DNA from: a virus
Lineage: Duplodnaviria > Heunggongvirae > Uroviricota > Caudoviricetes
IMG/VR virus record: IMGVR_UViG_2617270988_000018
Reading direction: 5' to 3' (one strand)
Length of the DNA: 7,814 bases
Position 1 is the stretch's first letter. Every line of letters begins with the position of its first letter. Both the position numbers and the translations under genes were made by a program. A model generated the notes under the pieces. That model was not told where the DNA came from. It made no database searches and saw only the letters and a list, made by a program, of their open reading frames with translations. Shown one piece after another: positions 1 through 7,814 of this stretch.

Positions 1-531
1 TTATGCTGCTCTCACGATATAGTTAAATGCAATGCTTCTTGGTCTGTTCTCTGAGGCAGTTGGCACTACTCTTGAAGCATCAAAATTGACTAAATGAGGA
101 TTGTTTGGGGTATTTGGAATGATTGTGGTGTTACCTATCGTATTACGAAGTGCTGATTGACTTACAAAAACACCACTCGCTGTATTAAAGCTAATAGCCG
201 CATTAGCTTCGGTTTGTCCATTACCAAATGTGCCGGTTATATTACGAATAGCATCCCCCTGAGCAGACAGAATTTCGCGCCCCGCGTCAATACCGCGCCC
301 GTCATCCCAGCCACGAATAAACTCACCACGTAAATCAGGCAATTTATTTGTCGGATAAGCCTTTGCCAGTTCCGGGTATTCTTCAGCAGAAAAAGCGGCA
401 CCGTTGCATTTCAGCCAGCCTGTTGGCGGAGTGGCGGAAGGCCACGGAACAGGCACGCCAACGGGTAATGCCGAACCTTCTCCCAAACCAACGTTTATGA
501 AAATGCAGAGATAACGGGCAACTGGCATCAT
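1..531 (-). CDS. Tail fibre variable C-terminal cassette (tail-collar-like domain), alternative and currently unfused orientation of an invertible fibre segment. The functional part is about 1..477; the first ~18 codons (478..531) read through the crossover site and are probably fortuitous.
   Basis: Translation contains the motif PTGWLKCNGAAFSAEEYPELAKAY, typical of phage tail-fibre C-terminal (tail collar) domains. The ORF ends with TAA at the window edge (1..3 on the minus strand). A 26-bp inversion crossover site sits at codons ~10-18, as in the Mu S/S' and P1 fibre genes. No convincing SD precedes the ATG at 531. Confidence 0.7.
   Translation of the reverse strand: MMPVARYLCIFINVGLGEGSALPVGVPVPWPSATPPTGWLKCNGAAFSAEEYPELAKAYPTNKLPDLRGEFIRGWDDGRGIDAGREILSAQGDAIRNITGTFGNGQTEANAAISFNTASGVFVSQSALRNTIGNTTIIPNTPNNPHLVNFDASRVVPTASENRPRSIAFNYIVRAA
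478..503. other. gix/hix/cix-like inversion crossover site for a serine DNA invertase (TTCTCCCAAACC-AA-CGTTTATGAAAA)
   Basis: 26-bp imperfect dyad with 12-bp half-sites around a central AA dinucleotide, matching the architecture TTnTCnnAAACC-nn-GGTTTnnGAnAA of Hin/Gin/Cin/Pin sites. It lies ~55 bp upstream of the invertase start and inside the fibre reading frame. Confidence 0.7.
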
Positions 532-558
532 CTCCGGTTTTTATTCAGGGGGATGCTC

Positions 559-1152
559 ATGCTTATTGGCTATGTGCGCGTGTCAACAAATGACCAGAAC
601 ACGGAATTGCAGCGTAACGCGCTGGAGTGTGCAGGATGTGAGCTGATTTTTGAGGATAAAATCAGCGGCACGAAGTCCGACCGACCGGGACTGAAAAAAC
701 TGCTCAGAACATTATCAGCAGGTGACACTCTGGTGGTCTGGAAGCTGGACAGGCTGGGGCGTAGTATGCGGCATCTGGTCATTCTGGTTGAGGAACTGCG
801 CGAACGCGGCGTTAATTTTCGCAGCCTGACGGATGCCATTGATACCAGCACGCCGATGGGACGTTTTTTCTTTCATGTGATGGGTGCCCTGGCTGAAACG
901 GAACGAGAACTCATTGTCGAGCGGACTCGCGCCGGACTGGAAGCGGCCAGAGCTAAAGGTCGTATTGGTGGCAGACGTTCGAAACTCACCGCGAGTGAGT
1001 GGGAGCAGGCCGGGCGGTTGTTGGCTGCAGGGGAATCACGTCAACGCGTGGCACTGATTTTTGATATTGGCCTGTCCACGCTCTATAAAAAATTCCCCGC
1101 CTCCGTGACAAAAAATAAATTGTGTCATCCCTTAGCCAACCGGGATAAATAG
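559..1152 (+). CDS. Serine recombinase, DNA invertase of the Gin/Pin/Cin/Hin family
   Basis: N-terminus MLIGYVRVSTNDQNT carries the catalytic serine motif, followed by the resolvase/invertase catalytic domain (VVWKLDRLGRS, GRFFFHVMGALAE) and a C-terminal HTH (GRIGGRR...ALIFDIGLSTLYKK). Start placed at ATG 559 rather than 553 because the SD AGGGGGA (546..552) is spaced 6 nt from 559 and the Gin/Pin proteins begin MLIGY. Confidence 0.95.
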   Translation: MLIGYVRVSTNDQNTELQRNALECAGCELIFEDKISGTKSDRPGLKKLLRTLSAGDTLVVWKLDRLGRSMRHLVILVEELRERGVNFRSLTDAIDTSTPMGRFFFHVMGALAETERELIVERTRAGLEAARAKGRIGGRRSKLTASEWEQAGRLLAAGESRQRVALIFDIGLSTLYKKFPASVTKNKLCHPLANRDK

Positions 1153-1211
1153 CCTGACATCTCCGGCACAACTGAAAATATCACTCACCCATTAACCACG
1201 GAGTTAAACGG

Positions 1212-2402
1212 ATGAGTGACTATCATCACGGCGTGCAGGTGCTGGAGATTAACGACGGCACCCGCGTCATTTCCACCGTATCCACCGCCATTGTCGGCAT
1301 GGTCTGCACGGCCAGCGATGCGGATGCGGAAACCTTCCCCCTCAATAAACCGGTGCTGATTACCAATGTGCAGAGCGCAATTGCAAAGGCCGGTAAAAAA
1401 GGCACGCTGGCGGCATCGTTGCAGGCTATCGCTGACCAGTCAAAACCGGTCACCGTTGTTGTGCGTGTGGAAGACGGCAGCGGCGACGACGAGGAAACGA
1501 AACTCGCGCAGACCGTTTCCAATATCATCGGCACCACCGACGAAAACGGTCAGTACACCGGACTGAAAGCCCTGCTGGCGGCGGAGTCGGTAACCGGTGT
1601 TAAACCGCGCATTCTCGGTGTTCCGGGACTGGACACCAAAGAGGTGGCTGTTGCACTGGCATCAGTCTGTCAGAAGCTGCGCGCTTTCGGGTATATCAGC
1701 GCATGGGGCTGTAAAACCATTTCCGAGGTGAAAGCCTACCGCCAGAATTTCAGCCAGCGTGAGCTGATGGTCATCTGGCCGGATTTCCTCGCATGGGATA
1801 CGGTCACCAGTACCACCGCCACCGCGTATGCCACCGCCCGTGCGCTGGGTCTGCGCGCTAAAATCGACCAGGAGCAGGGCTGGCATAAAACGCTGTCCAA
1901 CGTTGGGGTGAACGGTGTTACCGGCATCAGCGCCTCTGTATTCTGGGATTTGCAGGAGTCCGGCACCGATGCTGACCTGCTTAACGAGTCAGGCGTCACA
2001 ACGCTGATTCGCCGTGACGGTTTCCGCTTCTGGGGTAACCGTACCTGCTCTGATGACCCGCTGTTCCTCTTTGAAAACTACACCCGCACCGCGCAGGTGC
2101 TGGCCGACACGATGGCTGAGGCGCACATGTGGGCGGTGGACAAGCCCATCACCGCAACGCTGATTCGCGACATCGTTGACGGCATCAATGCCAAATTCCG
2201 TGAGCTGAAAACAAACGGCTATATCGTGGATGCGACCTGCTGGTTCAGCGAAGAATCCAACGATGCGGAAACCCTCAAGGCCGGAAAACTGTATATCGAC
2301 TACGACTATACCCCGGTGCCTCCTCTCGAAAACCTGACCCTGCGCCAGCGTATTACCGATAAATACCTGGCAAATCTGGTCACTTCGGTTAACAGCAATT
2401 AA
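1212..2402 (+). CDS. FI: Contractile tail sheath protein (P2 gpFI)
   Basis: 396-aa ORF, near-identical by recollection to P2 FI (MSDYHHGVQVLEIN...), which has the same length. GGAG SD at 1200..1203, 8 nt before the ATG. Confidence 0.95.
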   Translation: MSDYHHGVQVLEINDGTRVISTVSTAIVGMVCTASDADAETFPLNKPVLITNVQSAIAKAGKKGTLAASLQAIADQSKPVTVVVRVEDGSGDDEETKLAQTVSNIIGTTDENGQYTGLKALLAAESVTGVKPRILGVPGLDTKEVAVALASVCQKLRAFGYISAWGCKTISEVKAYRQNFSQRELMVIWPDFLAWDTVTSTTATAYATARALGLRAKIDQEQGWHKTLSNVGVNGVTGISASVFWDLQESGTDADLLNESGVTTLIRRDGFRFWGNRTCSDDPLFLFENYTRTAQVLADTMAEAHMWAVDKPITATLIRDIVDGINAKFRELKTNGYIVDATCWFSEESNDAETLKAGKLYIDYDYTPVPPLENLTLRQRITDKYLANLVTSVNSN

Positions 2403-2414
2403 GGAGCCTGACCG

Positions 2415-2933
2415 ATGGCAATGCCGCGCAAACTCAAGTTAATGAACGTCTTTCTGAACGGCTACAGCTATCAGGGCGTTGCAAAGTCCGTCACGCTGCC
2501 AAAACTGACCCGTAAGCTCGAAAACTATCGCGGTGCGGGGATGAACGGCAGCGCACCGGTAGACCTCGGCCTTGATGACGATGCGCTGTCAATGGAGTGG
2601 TCGCTCGGGGGCTTCCCGGATTCGGTTATCTGGGAGCTTTACGCCGCAACCGGTGTGGATGCCGTGCCGATTCGTTTTGCAGGCTCTTACCAGCGTGACG
2701 ATACCGGCGAAACGGTGGCCGTCGAAGTGGTCATGCGTGGACGTCAGAAAGAAATCGACACCGGCGAGGGTAAACAGGGAGAAGACACCGAGCCGAAAAT
2801 CTCCGTGGTCTGCACCTATTTCCGGCTGACGATGGACGGTAAGGAGCTGGTCGAAATCGACACCATCAACATGATTGAGAAGGTGAACGGCGTCGACCGG
2901 CTGGAGCAACACCGCCGAAATATCGGCCTGTGA
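2415..2933 (+). CDS. FII: Tail tube protein (P2 gpFII)
   Basis: 172-aa ORF, same length and position as P2 FII. AAGGAG SD at 2401..2406 overlaps the FI stop codon. Confidence 0.95.
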   Translation: MAMPRKLKLMNVFLNGYSYQGVAKSVTLPKLTRKLENYRGAGMNGSAPVDLGLDDDALSMEWSLGGFPDSVIWELYAATGVDAVPIRFAGSYQRDDTGETVAVEVVMRGRQKEIDTGEGKQGEDTEPKISVVCTYFRLTMDGKELVEIDTINMIEKVNGVDRLEQHRRNIGL

Positions 2934-2989
2934 TTTTCATCCGGTCAGCCTGGCTGACCGGTTAACCCTGATTCAGAAGTGAGAAAACC

Positions 2990-3265
2990 ATGAACAAAGA
3001 AAATGTGATTACCCTGGACAATCCGGTCAAGCGTGGTGAGCAGGTTATCGAACAGGTCACGCTGATGAAGCCCAATGCCGGGACGCTGCGCGGTGTCAGT
3101 CTGGCTGCGGTCGCAAACTCCGAAGTCGATGCACTGATTAAGGTGCTGCCGCGCATGACGGCACCGATGCTGACCGAGCAGGAAGTCGCCGCGCTGGAAC
3201 TGCCTGACCTTGTGGCGCTGGCCGGTAAGGTGGTCGGTTTTTTGTCGCCGAACTCGGTGCAGTAA
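2990..3265 (+). CDS. E: Tail assembly chaperone (P2 gpE), zero-frame product
   Basis: 91-aa ORF between tube and tape-measure genes, matching P2 E in length and position. Contains the slippery heptamer T_TTT_TTG near its 3' end. Confidence 0.9.
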   Translation: MNKENVITLDNPVKRGEQVIEQVTLMKPNAGTLRGVSLAAVANSEVDALIKVLPRMTAPMLTEQEVAALELPDLVALAGKVVGFLSPNSVQ

Positions 3266-3417
3266 CGTTCCCGAAAAATCTCTCGGTCGATGACCTGATG
3301 GCGGATGTGGCAGTGATATTTCACTGGCCGCCATCAGAACTGTATCCCATGAGCCTGACCGAACTCATCACATGGCGCGAAAAGGCGCTCCGGCGAAGCG
3401 GAAACACGAATGAGTAA
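2990..3417 (+). CDS. E+E': Tail assembly chaperone fusion E+E', made by a programmed -1 ribosomal frameshift at TTTTTTG (3238..3244); predicted 142 aa
   Basis: After a -1 slip, the frame from 3244 is open for 57 codons (VAELGAVTFPKNLSVDDLMADVAVIFHWPPSELYPMSLTELITWREKALRRSGNTNE) and stops at TAA 3415..3417, overlapping the T start at 3410. The 142-aa total matches P2 E+E' as recalled, and the arrangement is analogous to lambda G/GT. Confidence 0.75.
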
Positions 3418-5857
3418 CAATGTAAAATTACAGGTATTGCTCAGGGCTGTTGACCAGGCATCCCGCCCGTTTAAATCCATCCGCACAGCGAGCAAGTCGC
3501 TGTCGGGGGATATCCGGGAAACACAAAAATCACTGCGCGAGCTGAACGGTCACGCATCCCGTATTGAGGGATTTCGCAAGACCAGTGCACAGCTCGCCGT
3601 GACTGGTCATGCACTTGAAAAGGCACGGCAGGAGGCCGAAGCCCTTGCCACACAGTTTAAAAACACCGAACGTCCGACACGTGCTCAGGCGAAAGTGCTG
3701 GAATCCGCGAAGCGTGCGGCGGAGGACTTACAGGCGAAATATAACTGCCTGACGGATTCCGTTAAACGCCAGCAGCGGGAACTGGCCGTTGTGGGAATTA
3801 ATACCCGCAATCTTGCACATGATGAGCAGGGACTGAAAAACCGTATCAGTGAAACCACCGCACAGCTTAACCGTCAGCGTGATGCGCTGGCGCGTGTCAG
3901 TGCGCAACAGGCAAAACTTAACGCAGTCAAACAGCGTTATCAGGCCGGAAAGGAACTGGCCGGAAATATGGCCTCAGTAGGCGCTGCCGGTGTGGGGATT
4001 GCGGCGGCGGGAACGATGGCCGGAGTTAAATTGCTGATGCCCGGTTATGAATTTGCGCAGAAAAACTCAGAATTGCAGGCCGTGCTCGGAGTGGCAAAAG
4101 ACTCCGCCGAAATGACCGCACTCCGCAAGCAGGCGCGCCAGCTCGGCGACAATACCGCAGCCTCGGCAGATGATGCAGCCGGTGCACAGATTATCATTGC
4201 GAAAGCCGGTGGGGATGTTGATGCCATTCAGGCGGCAACGCCGGTCACGCTGAATATGGCGCTGGCGAACCGCCGCACGATGGAAGAAAACGCCGCCCTG
4301 CTGATGGGGATGAAATCCGCCTTTCAGCTTTCAAACGATAAGGTCGCTCATATCGGGGATGTTCTCTCCATGACGATGAACAAAACCGCCGCCGATTTTG
4401 ACGGCATGAGCGATGCGCTGACCTATGCCGCACCTGTGGCAAAAAATGCCGGTGTCAGCATTGAAGAAACCGCCGCAATGGTCGGGGCGCTGCATGATGC
4501 AAAAATCACAGGCTCAATGGCGGGGACGGGAAGCCGTGCCGTGTTAAGCCGCCTGCAGGCACCGACGGGAAAAGCATGGGATGCACTCAAAGAGCTTGGC
4601 GTGAAAACCTCAGACAGCAAGGGAAACACCCGGCCAATATTTACCATTCTGAAAGAAATGCAGGCCAGTTTTGAGAAAAACCGGCTCGGTACTGCCCAGC
4701 AGGCTGAATACATGAAAACCATTTTCGGGGAGGAGGCCAGCTCAGCCGCCGCTGTGCTGATGACTGCCGCCTCAACCGGAAAGCTGGACAAACTGACCGC
4801 TGCGTTTAAAGCCTCAGACGGGAAGACCGCAGAGCTGGTAAATATCATGCAGGACAACCTCGGCGGTGACTTTAAGGAGTTTCAGTCCGCTTATGAGGCG
4901 GTGGGGACTGACCTGTTTGACCAGCAGGAAGGCGCACTGCGTAATCTCACGCAGACGGCCACAAAGTATGTGTTAAAACTCGACGGCTGGATCCAGAAAA
5001 ACAAATCACTGGCGTCAACCATCGGCATCATTGTCGGTGGTGCACTGGCACTGATTGGTGTCATCGGTGCCATTGGCCTCGTCGCCTGGCCGGTTATCAC
5101 CGGCATCAATGCCATCATCGCGGCAGCAGGCGCAATGGGGGCAATCTTCACGACGGTTGGCAGTGCTGTTATAACCGCCATCGGGGCGATTAGCTGGCCG
5201 GTTGTGGCCGTGGTGGCCGCCATTGTCGCCGGGGCGTTGCTTATCCGTAAATACTGGGAGCCTGTCAGCGCATTCTTTGGCGGTGTGGTGGAAGGGCTGA
5301 AAGCGGCATTTGCGCCGGTGGGGGAACTGTTCACGCCACTTAAACCGGTGTTTGACTGGCTGGGTGAAAAGTTACAGGCCGCGTGGCAGTGGTTTAAAAA
5401 CCTGATTGCCCCGGTCAAAGCCACCCAGGACACCCTGAACCGTTGCCGTGACACGGGCGTCATGTTCGGGCAGGCACTGGCTGACGCGCTGATGCTGCCG
5501 CTTAATGCGTTCAACAAACTGCGCAGTGGTATTGACTGGGTACTGGAAAAACTCGGTGTTATCAACAAAGAGTCAGACACACTTGACCAGACCGCCGCCA
5601 GAACTCAAGCCGCCACGTATGGCAGCGGTGGTTATATTCCGGCGACCAGCTCTTATGCAGGTTATCAGGCTTATCAGCCGGTCACGGCACCGGCTGGCCG
5701 CTCTTATGTAGACCAGAGTAAAAACGAATATCACATCAGCCTGACGGGTGGTACTGCGCCGGGGACACAGCTCGACCGCCAGTTACAGGATGCGCTCGAA
5801 AAATACGAGCGGGATAAACGTGCGCGCGCCCGTGCCAGCATGATGCATGACGGTTAA
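3410..5857 (+). CDS. T: Tail tape measure protein (P2 gpT)
   Basis: 815-aa ORF, same length as P2 T. Coiled-coil-like N-terminal region, then an Ala/Gly-rich segment and a long hydrophobic stretch (~5021..5245), typical of tape measure proteins. Confidence 0.95.
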   Translation: MSNNVKLQVLLRAVDQASRPFKSIRTASKSLSGDIRETQKSLRELNGHASRIEGFRKTSAQLAVTGHALEKARQEAEALATQFKNTERPTRAQAKVLESAKRAAEDLQAKYNCLTDSVKRQQRELAVVGINTRNLAHDEQGLKNRISETTAQLNRQRDALARVSAQQAKLNAVKQRYQAGKELAGNMASVGAAGVGIAAAGTMAGVKLLMPGYEFAQKNSELQAVLGVAKDSAEMTALRKQARQLGDNTAASADDAAGAQIIIAKAGGDVDAIQAATPVTLNMALANRRTMEENAALLMGMKSAFQLSNDKVAHIGDVLSMTMNKTAADFDGMSDALTYAAPVAKNAGVSIEETAAMVGALHDAKITGSMAGTGSRAVLSRLQAPTGKAWDALKELGVKTSDSKGNTRPIFTILKEMQASFEKNRLGTAQQAEYMKTIFGEEASSAAAVLMTAASTGKLDKLTAAFKASDGKTAELVNIMQDNLGGDFKEFQSAYEAVGTDLFDQQEGALRNLTQTATKYVLKLDGWIQKNKSLASTIGIIVGGALALIGVIGAIGLVAWPVITGINAIIAAAGAMGAIFTTVGSAVITAIGAISWPVVAVVAAIVAGALLIRKYWEPVSAFFGGVVEGLKAAFAPVGELFTPLKPVFDWLGEKLQAAWQWFKNLIAPVKATQDTLNRCRDTGVMFGQALADALMLPLNAFNKLRSGIDWVLEKLGVINKESDTLDQTAARTQAATYGSGGYIPATSSYAGYQAYQPVTAPAGRSYVDQSKNEYHISLTGGTAPGTQLDRQLQDALEKYERDKRARARASMMHDG

Positions 5858-5871
5858 GGAGGTGACGAAAA

Positions 5872-6351
5872 ATGATGCTCGCGTTAGGTATGTTTGTTTT
5901 TATGCGCCAGACGCTGCCACACCAGACCATGCAGCGTGAATCAGATTATCGCTGGCCGTCAAATTCCCGTATCGGTAAACGGGACGCTTTTCAGTTTCTC
6001 GGTGTGGGTGAGGAAAACATCACGCTTGCCGGTGTGCTTTATCCCGAACTGACCGGCGGCAAGCTGACGATGACCACGCTCAGGCTGATGGCAGAGGAGG
6101 GGCGGGCGTGGCCGTTGCTGGATGGCACCGGCATGATTTACGGCATGTATGTCATCAGCAAGGTGAGTGAAACAGGGAGTATTTTCTTTGCAGACGGCAC
6201 ACCCCGGAAAATTGATTTTACGCTGTCGCTCACCCGCGTTGATGAATCACTGGCCGCGCTTTATGGCGATATCGGTAAACAGGCGGAATCGCTCATCGGT
6301 AAGGCCGGTAGTCTGGCGACTAGATTCACGGGGATGACGGGGGCGGAATAA
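5872..6351 (+). CDS. U: Tail protein U (P2 gpU)
   Basis: 159-aa ORF, same length and position as P2 U. Strong AGGAGG SD at 5857..5862. Its stop overlaps the D start (TAATG). Confidence 0.9.
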   Translation: MMLALGMFVFMRQTLPHQTMQRESDYRWPSNSRIGKRDAFQFLGVGEENITLAGVLYPELTGGKLTMTTLRLMAEEGRAWPLLDGTGMIYGMYVISKVSETGSIFFADGTPRKIDFTLSLTRVDESLAALYGDIGKQAESLIGKAGSLATRFTGMTGAE

Positions 6352-7514
6352 TGCTGGATGCGCTGACATTTGATGCAGGCAGTACGCTGACGCCGGATTA
6401 CATGCTGATGCTCGACAGCAGGGATATTACCGGCAATATCAGCGACCGTCTGATGAGCATGACTCTGACGGATAACCGGGGCTTTGAGGCTGACCAGCTT
6501 GATATTGAACTGAACGATGCCGACGGGCAGGTCGGGCTGCCGATTCGTGGCGCTGTCCTGACGGTGTATATCGGCTGGAAAGGTTTTGCCCTGGTATGCA
6601 AAGGGAAATTTACCGTTGATGAGGTTGAACACCGGGGCGCGCCGGATGTGGTCACCATCCGCGCCCGGAGTGCAGATTTTCGCGGGACGCTCGATTCCCG
6701 CCGTGAAGGCTCCTGGCATGACACCACGCTCGGTGCGATTGTTGAGGCAATAGCCTCCCGTAACAGGCTGGAAGCCAGTGTCGCGCCGTCACTGGCCGGA
6801 ATTAAAATCCCGCACATCGACCAGTCGCAGGAGTCTGATGCGAAATTCCTGACCCGTCTTGCAGAACGCAACGGCGGTGAGGTGTCGGTAAAAATGGGAA
6901 AACTGCTGTTTCTCAAAGCGGGGCAGGGGGTGACTGCCAGCGGTAAAAAAATCCCGCAGATTACCATCACCCGCAGCGACGGTGACCGTCATCATTTTGC
7001 GATTGCTGACCGTGGAGCCTATACCGGCGTAACGGCAAAGTGGTTACACACCAAAGACCCGAAACCACAAAAGCAGAAGGTAAAACTGAAACGCAAAAAG
7101 AAAGAAAAACACCTGCGCGCACTGGAGCACCCGAAAGCAAAACCGGTCACGCAGAAGAAAGCGCCAAAAGTACCGGAAGCGCGCGAAGGTGAATACATGG
7201 CAGGTGAGGCTGACAACGTTTTTGCCCTGACCACGGTATATGCCACGAAAGCGCAGGCCATGCGCGCCGCTCAGGCGAAGTGGGATAAGCTGCAACGGGG
7301 CGTTGCGGAGTTCTCTATCAGTCTGGCTACTGGTCGGGCAGATATTTACACGGAAACGCCGGTCAAAGTATCAGGCTTTAAGCGCGTCATAGACGAGCAG
7401 GACTGGACAATCACTAAGGTGACACATTTTCTGAATAATAGCGGCTTCACGACGTCCCTGGAGCTTGAGGTCAGGCTTTCTGATGTGGAGTACGAAACAG
7501 AAGATGATGAGTGA
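6351..7514 (+). CDS. D: Tail/baseplate hub-like protein D (P2 gpD, late control gene D family)
   Basis: 387-aa ORF, same length and position as P2 D. Start overlaps the U stop (TAATG at 6349..6353), indicating translational coupling. Contains an internal Lys-rich low-complexity linker. Confidence 0.93.
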   Translation: MLDALTFDAGSTLTPDYMLMLDSRDITGNISDRLMSMTLTDNRGFEADQLDIELNDADGQVGLPIRGAVLTVYIGWKGFALVCKGKFTVDEVEHRGAPDVVTIRARSADFRGTLDSRREGSWHDTTLGAIVEAIASRNRLEASVAPSLAGIKIPHIDQSQESDAKFLTRLAERNGGEVSVKMGKLLFLKAGQGVTASGKKIPQITITRSDGDRHHFAIADRGAYTGVTAKWLHTKDPKPQKQKVKLKRKKKEKHLRALEHPKAKPVTQKKAPKVPEAREGEYMAGEADNVFALTTVYATKAQAMRAAQAKWDKLQRGVAEFSISLATGRADIYTETPVKVSGFKRVIDEQDWTITKVTHFLNNSGFTTSLELEVRLSDVEYETEDDE

Positions 7515-7532
7515 TGTTTTTATTTTATCTGT

Positions 7533-7561
7533 TTGTTTTATAAGGATAAATTAACTAAAAT
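7533..7561 (+). promoter_or_regulatory. Candidate sigma70 promoter for ogr: -35 TTGTTT (7533..7538), 17-bp spacer, -10 TAAAAT (7556..7561)
   Basis: AT-rich 81-bp intergenic region between D and ogr. Hexamers and spacing read directly from the sequence. A GAAGAGG SD follows at 7581..7587. Confidence 0.4.
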
Positions 7562-7595
7562 GGCACCATCAACAAAACCGGAAGAGGTGCTCGCG

Positions 7596-7814
7596 ATGTT
7601 TCATTGTCCTTTATGCCAGCATGCCGCACATGCGCGTACAAGTCGCTATATCACTGACACGACAAAAGAGCGTTATCACCAGTGTCAGAACGTGAATTGC
7701 AGCGCCACGTTCATCACTTATGAGTCGGTACAGCGATACATCGTGAAGCCGGGAGAAGTCCACGCCGTGAGGCCGCACCCGTTGCCGTCAGGGCAGCAAA
7801 TTATGTGGATGTAA
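7596..7814 (+). CDS. ogr: Late-gene transcriptional activator Ogr (Cys4 zinc finger, Ogr/Delta family)
   Basis: 72-aa product MFHCPLCQHAAHARTSRYITDTTKERYHQCQNVNCSATF... with a C-X2-C...C-X4-C zinc-binding arrangement, matching P2 Ogr by recollection. Start set at ATG 7596 (preceded by an SD) rather than the upstream ATG 7533 of the 93-aa track ORF. TAA stop is at the window end. Confidence 0.93.
   Translation: MFHCPLCQHAAHARTSRYITDTTKERYHQCQNVNCSATFITYESVQRYIVKPGEVHAVRPHPLPSGQQIMWM

Follow-up and report, generated by a model that had tools for sequence, protein, structure and literature searches.

An invertible tail-fibre module of the Pin/Gin type very probably occupies the Z/fun position of a P2-like prophage

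The window, meaning the whole 7,814-nucleotide stretch of DNA analysed here, consists of a short left-end module followed by late tail genes of the phage P2 type (Table 1). From position 1132 to 7814, the DNA is 97.4% identical to phage P2 with zero gaps. To the right of the invertase, the open reading frame (ORF) listing and Pfam matches identify the FI sheath, the FII tube, E, the T tape measure, U, D and ogr, and the resulting order pF-FI-FII-E/E'-T-U-D-ogr is that of a P2-like (Peduovirus) tail cluster. In the annotation of P2 itself, G is followed by fun(Z) on the opposite strand, then by the pF promoter and FI, in agreement with the original prediction that the Z/fun slot lies between G and FI. 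The P2 fun(Z) gene (L007 676-2262) has no match anywhere in the window, and P2 homology begins only at 1132. The module thus stands in place of Z/fun, and all window DNA to the left of 1132 is non-P2 cargo in this slot. The window seems to have been cut on gene boundaries, as its end coincides exactly with the ogr stop and its start exactly with the stop of the fibre cassette. At the right end, the mechanically listed ogr frame (7533-7814) starts at a TTG and encodes 93 aa; in relatives the called product has 72 aa, and translation therefore probably begins at the internal ATG near 7596.

Table 1. Features of the left-end module and its borders, in window coordinates; negative numbers lie to the left of the window.
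Feature	Position	Strand or orientation	Remarks
Partner crossover site, TTCTCCCAAACC-AA-GGTATGCAAGAA (read in the sense of the window site)	-1422..-1397	inverted	From contigs L004 and L006
OFF Collar-domain C-terminal cassette of tail-fibre gene H	1..489	-	ORF residues 15-176 (GLGEGSALPVG...IVRAA), stop at 3..1; within the invertible segment
26-bp crossover site (pix/gix type), TTCTCCCAAACC + AA + CGTTTATGAAAA	478..503		2-bp core at 490-491
Non-fibre leader MMPVARYLCIFINV	492..531	-	Outside the invertible segment; gives the OFF cassette an in-frame ATG
Spacer, crossover site to invertase start	504..558	+	Identical in three relatives, partly conserved with Mu
DNA invertase, Pin/Gin family serine recombinase, 197 aa	559..1152	+	Pfam domains, identity to PinE and Gin; C-terminal HTH
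P2 backbone restart, pF late-promoter region	1132..1211	+	Right junction of the module at 1131/1132; activator binding site and transcription start annotated here in P2
FI tail sheath gene, right-hand neighbour of the Z/fun slot	1212..2402	+	Pfam sheath domains; collinear with P2 FI

The gene at the right end of the module encodes a DNA invertase. The plus-strand ORF at 553..1152 matches the Pfam families Resolvase (PF00239, E=1.2e-51) and HTH_7 (PF02796, E=8e-13), and its product shares 87% identity with PinE and 80% with Mu Gin, with E=3.4e-93 against the Gin entry 3UJ3 in the PDB. The catalytic residues R7, S9, D64, R65 and R68 are all present, giving the serine nucleophile, the arginine and aspartate catalytic residues and the C-terminal HTH that characterize small serine recombinases. 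An NCBIfam scan returned no specific equivalog for the invertase, the cassettes or the chaperones. The original prediction placed a Gin/Pin-family invertase in the Z/fun slot, and this family assignment stands; the start of the gene is probably not the codon at 553 but the ATG at 559, since the latter aligns with the start of Mu gin, has a GGGGGA upstream at a suitable spacing and is used by gene callers and PGAP in relatives. At its other end, the invertase ORF extends 16 residues beyond its Gin/Pin homology (window 1119-1152) and ends in the P2 backbone. Its last seven codons (21 nt, 1132-1152) and the stop are P2 sequence, located within the binding site that P2 annotates for the pF activator (Ogr). 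The upstream half of that activator site is module DNA, and a TTGTG motif is still found at the same spacing from TTAGCCAACC.

The spacer in front of the invertase is presumed to contain the promoter and ribosome-binding site of the gene. A scan of window positions 1-1300 for the sigma-70 consensus gave no match within this spacer. In this family of invertases, a cis-acting recombinational enhancer with two Fis sites usually lies in the 5' part of the invertase gene. In phage Mu, the enhancer is located within the 5' end of the invertase gene, and the 5' coding DNA of the window invertase is conserved with Mu gin. A loose scan for Fis motifs in the 5' ends of both genes yielded many candidates, the motif being too degenerate to place the enhancer; one candidate, at +101 from the start codon, is common to the window invertase and Mu gin, with the same degeneracy of the motif applying to it. 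In Hin, residues 47, 48, 51, 151, 154 and 155 are reported to contact Fis or the enhancer and to be uniquely conserved in invertases that depend on Fis and the enhancer (PMC3798978). At these positions, the window invertase carries K46, K47, R50, Q150, R153 and L154.

To the left of the spacer, the crossover site that had been predicted beside the invertase is present at 478-503. It reads TTCTCCCAAACCAACGTTTATGAAAA in full and occurs once in the window, and 200 shuffles produced 0 chance matches even when three mismatches were allowed. The site aligns base for base with Mu gixR, which directly precedes gin, and has exactly the sequence of the site adjacent to pinE in the e14 element of E. coli K-12. 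Its inner half-site (478-489) encodes the residues GLGE on the minus strand.

Translation of the minus-strand ORF that runs through this site (1..531) gives 176 aa, or 175 aa if the next ATG, at 528, is used as the start, and the stop codon of the ORF ends at window position 1. The predicted fibre homology is confirmed by a match of residues 25-72 to the Pfam Collar domain (PF07484, E=1.4e-15). The first 14 codons (531-490), which encode MMPVARYLCIFINV, begin outside the segment, extend up to the crossover core and contain no fibre sequence. The fibre-derived part, which the original prediction began at residue ~19, is real and begins at residue 15, with GLGE. The related claim that the cassette lacks a start context of its own essentially holds, in that the leader is non-fibre and a GGAG directly abuts the two ATGs at 531 and 528 (0-3 nt spacing, poor for a ribosome-binding site), although the ORF does contain these two ATGs.

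The first 95 aa of the Collar cassette are nearly identical to StfE of the K-12 e14 element, whereas the distal half differs and overall identity is 62%. Among 5426 complete E. coli genomes, the best full-length match to the cassette reaches only 93.8%, and most relatives diverge leftward from about position 239, that is, in the distal tip. By this pattern of matches, the distal tip is a mosaic, exchangeable unit. Additionally, window DNA 1-499 is 92.4% identical to stf of HK97, in the stf/tfa junction region of this lambdoid phage, a likeness consistent with the swapping of fibre tips that has long been known to occur between unrelated coliphages.

Although the window itself contains only one crossover site and one cassette, the left half of the module is available from three contigs (L004, L005 and L006) found by searching for exact copies of the 175-aa protein. 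L006 matches window 1-2034 at 100% identity (a 2034-base overlap) and reaches 1.7 kb further to the left, and L005 is 99.97% identical over the entire window. L006 stops before the start of H, and the full left context was therefore taken from L004 (98.3% identity to the window), which contains the whole tail region of its prophage. In L004 and L006, a partner crossover site lies approximately 1.9 kb to the left of the window site, inside H and in inverted orientation; its AA core is identical, and its 12-bp inner half-site matches perfectly. The module thus has two inverted 26-bp sites, both imperfect dyads with 12-bp half-sites and an identical 2-bp core, the partner being known from contigs that are 98-100% identical to the window.

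In L004, H is an intact ORF of 399 aa in which the partner site falls at the motif LAYL-GLGE and is followed by a gp53-like C-terminal domain. From left to right, the 1.9-kb segment between the sites contains the gp53-like cassette (plus strand), a 147-aa Caudo_TAP chaperone (plus), a 200-aa Caudo_TAP chaperone (minus) and the Collar cassette (minus), so that it is composed of two convergent units, in each of which a fibre C-terminal cassette is paired with a dedicated assembly chaperone. The constant N-terminal part of H lies outside the segment, to the left of the partner site, and both C-terminal cassettes are in frame with it, which is the arrangement of an invertible tail fibre. In the sampled orientation, H ends in the gp53-like domain, and the Collar cassette is cut off from H. 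The original prediction had anticipated an inverted partner site, an opposing variable domain with its assembly gene and the constant part of H, all to the left of the window, and each is found where it was expected. It had also named two findings that would speak against it, the lack of a second inverted site and a minus-strand ORF that is a complete gene free of fibre homology; a second inverted site exists, and the ORF is homologous to fibres but lacks an N-terminal fibre part of its own.

A search of L004 7001-11500 for a third crossover site (half-sites with up to 2 mismatches, and a weight matrix with a threshold of 12) found none. In the half-site weight matrix, the two real sites score approximately 30, a value that is somewhat circular, as the matrix was partly built from these sites. 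With two sites in this interval, the locus differs from shufflon-like systems of three or more sites and more than two variants, such as Min of p15B, and is best described as a simple two-state switch. Window positions 1-1152 are, with high confidence, the right-hand half of a two-site invertible tail-fibre module of the Pin/Gin type, located at the Z/fun position of a P2-like (Peduovirus) prophage.

Automated pipelines are prone to breaking up H at the crossover site or close to it. In E. coli KTa005 (L001 6536-7957), PGAP annotates H as an incomplete pseudogene together with a separate 'gp53-like' CDS, and for H of L004 (9566-10765) the gene caller lists only a 136-aa fragment. A broken H was considered and rejected, because the ORF listing gives intact frames of 473 aa and 399 aa, respectively, and the pseudogene flag and the 136-aa call are annotation quirks. 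The shaft of H in KTa005 carries an extra repeat of 74 aa.

When the segment is inverted in silico at the two cores, residues 1-276 of H are joined to GLGEGSALPVG... of the Collar cassette in a single open frame, giving an H of 438 aa. The GLGE at the predicted joint is encoded by the inner half-site that the two crossover sites share. Used as a query, the synthetic junction between the constant part of H and the Collar cassette matched E. coli G47-1 with 100% coverage and 97.8% identity. The annotation of G47-1 at this locus reads I, H (438 aa, tail-collar), tfa (603 nt), tfa (444 nt, minus strand), gp53-like cassette (minus strand), recombinase and FI. Compared with the window prophage, a block of 1905 bp (window-relative -1410 to +494) is inverted in G47-1 at 99.1% identity. 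The flanks are collinear (97.5% identity on the left and 98.0% on the right), and the breakpoints overlap both crossover sites. Both orientations had been predicted, and the near-identical prophage of G47-1 has exactly this segment flipped. By this comparison of near-identical prophages, which present both orientations, the segment evidently inverts in nature.

The four possible junctions are also widespread. Probes of 181-182 nt, counted at a coverage of at least 80% in the 5426 complete E. coli genomes, found the invertase-Collar junction in 881 genomes, the H-Collar junction in 457, the H-gp53 junction in 232 and the invertase-gp53 junction in 855; e14 and other elements whose invertase-side sequence is related are included, and the counts are measures of prevalence, not of orientation or of a switching ratio. 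The orientation in any single assembly is a snapshot. As the evidence for inversion obtained here is comparative, the differences in orientation might in principle have arisen by RecA-dependent recombination between inverted repeats or by errors of assembly, with no part played by the invertase. The inverted sequence shared by the two sites, however, amounts to only about 14-18 bp, a length too short for efficient RecA recombination. Moreover, the breakpoints fall on canonical 26-bp invertase sites beside an invertase gene, and both orientations are found in hundreds of complete genomes. In e14 and P2-like prophages, mixed orientations have been detected within clonal cultures by sequencing and PCR (PMC4272514). 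The probability of an origin by RecA or assembly error is therefore very small.

The prophage of G47-1 also bears on how the minus-strand ORF should be read. Gene callers and PGAP list this ORF among the CDSs of relatives, it contains in-frame ATGs with a GGAG nearby, and the plus-strand TGGCAT (ATGCCA on the minus strand) is conserved as far as Mu. By these features, it could be an independent gene, translated from the ATG at 531 or 528 as a free Collar-domain protein of 175-176 aa. However, the GGAG lies too close to the ATGs for a good ribosome-binding site, the first 14 residues are non-fibre sequence from outside the segment, and the crossover site lies within the ORF, exactly at the GLGE motif that is also present in H. 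In G47-1, the same cassette is the C-terminus of the 438-aa H, and the OFF gp53-like cassette begins at the same ATG as the OFF Collar ORF of the window. One ATG therefore heads whichever cassette is OFF, which indicates that the open frame is a by-product of a shared reading frame. Furthermore, the K-12 RefSeq record treats the equivalent gene of e14, stfE, as a pseudogene. An independent gene is thus extremely improbable, and a 175-aa 'phage tail protein' annotated beside an invertase is better described as a silent H cassette than as a free-standing gene.

The hexamer ATGCCA (TGGCAT on the plus strand) occupies window positions 526-531, just outside the crossover site, and is invariant in the window, two relatives and Mu. 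Its counterparts lie in e14 at about L011 4650-4660 and in Mu at about L008 5550-5560. The hexamer supplies whichever cassette is OFF with an in-frame ATG. Its conservation may simply reflect that it is part of the promoter region of the invertase. It is also conceivable, though highly improbable from what the sequence offers, that the OFF cassette is made in the lysogen as a free receptor-binding fragment by way of the conserved ATG at 528/531; such a fragment could, for example, block receptors or exclude related phages. Equally improbable is a separate suggestion, namely that the overlap between the 3' end of the invertase and the pF activator site might couple inversion to the activation of late genes.

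A switch of this architecture might also have stopped working, through an inactive invertase, a lost enhancer or a damaged site, in which case the Collar cassette would be permanently silent. This is evident for the invertase of some related elements, in which the gene is broken, as for the frameshifted pinE of strain XH988, and in the present locus the enhancer and promoter scans demonstrated neither element. However, the ORF of the window invertase is intact and retains every catalytic residue, together with the residues at the six Fis-contact positions taken from PMC3798978. The cores and inner half-sites are identical in both crossover sites, and a prophage of approximately 98% identity occurs in the other orientation. 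It is therefore very unlikely that the module is a frozen relic, and an active switch is the preferred reading.

How such a switch would operate can be proposed from the Hin/Gin/Cin/Pin family. The invertase would bind each crossover site as a dimer, and a Fis-bound enhancer would drive synapsis of the two sites. Ser9 would then cleave at the AA core, and the half-sites would rotate through 180 degrees by subunit rotation. Inversion would fuse the Collar cassette in frame to H (438 aa) and set the matching 200-aa chaperone downstream of it. As in the family, switching in the lysogen would be expected at low frequency, such that a population of lysogens would release P2-type virions with two alternative receptor specificities, that is, with a phase-variable host range. 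Any host-range prediction for this prophage should accordingly allow for two receptor specificities and not one, if the proposed mechanism holds.

Invertase-driven switching of tail-fibre tips is a textbook phenomenon since Mu, P1 and e14. Cin of the P1 C segment, Hin of Salmonella and Fin of Fels-2 are members of this family too, being Fis-dependent serine invertases that act on 26-bp sites, although Hin switches a promoter and not a fibre C-terminus. The original prediction likened the architecture to the Mu G segment, the P1 C segment and the e14 P region; for Mu and e14, the layout agrees and the sites align. The G segment is laid out as Sc - gixL - Sv U - U' S'v - gixR - gin, with sites that share the 12+2+12 structure; however, it is approximately 3 kb in length, carries other cassettes in a Mu virion backbone, and differs in its core dinucleotide and outer half-sites. 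The closer parallel is the e14 P region (stfP/ycfK-tfaP-tfaE-stfE-pinE), which has the same order of cassette and chaperone, inverted chaperone and cassette, and invertase. Besides the shared site, its similar invertase and its nearly identical Collar start, it shows approximately 85-90% DNA identity to the module over tfaE, the proximal cassette and the invertase. The host elements differ: the window module lies between the H/G unit and FI of what looks like a complete P2-type tail cluster, whereas e14 is defective, has a Mu-like baseplate (GP46/gp47/YmfQ) and carries mcrA downstream. The window invertase is 13 aa longer than that of e14 because it reads into the P2 backbone.

Relatives in the same slot are also known. 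Escherichia phage pro483 and Salmonella phage MET_P1_103_31 share both the position and the order I - H - tfa - tfa' - cassette' - invertase - FI. Over the aligned part, relatives of this type share 95-96% identity with the window, and they have an identical site and a partner in H; pro483 annotates its gene as 'DNA invertase', and MET_P1_103_31 has a Collar-type cassette in the ON position. In P2-like prophages, the distal tips of the cassettes differ between strains. Deep sequencing and PCR by Goldberg et al. demonstrated that e14 and two P2-like prophages of EPEC E2348/69 invert within clonal cultures (PMC4272514). One of these EPEC prophages differs from the window locus, with its two sites, in having three inverted repeats and four variants (PMC4272514). 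Additionally, according to a 2024 preprint, the Z/fun hotspot of P2 often encodes a DNA invertase, with inversion of the adjacent genes (bioRxiv 10.1101/2024.10.15.618418).

The module at the left end of the window is therefore an ordinary member of a well-described, already known system, and the original reading of it is correct. The hint of strain-specific novelty that accompanied this reading does not survive, as the module closely resembles the e14 P region at the DNA level, is found in pro483 and has been described in the literature (PMC4272514; bioRxiv 10.1101/2024.10.15.618418). Switching in P2-like prophages at the Z/fun hotspot has already been documented by experiment and comparative genomics, and the value of the present analysis is chiefly in annotation. 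Beyond ogr, at the opposite end of the window, the chromosomal neighbours of near-identical prophages differ: L004 has a PFL-like/glycyl-radical gene, L005 a peptidase U32 gene and KTa005 fieF/pfkA, which suggests different integration sites for this phage lineage.
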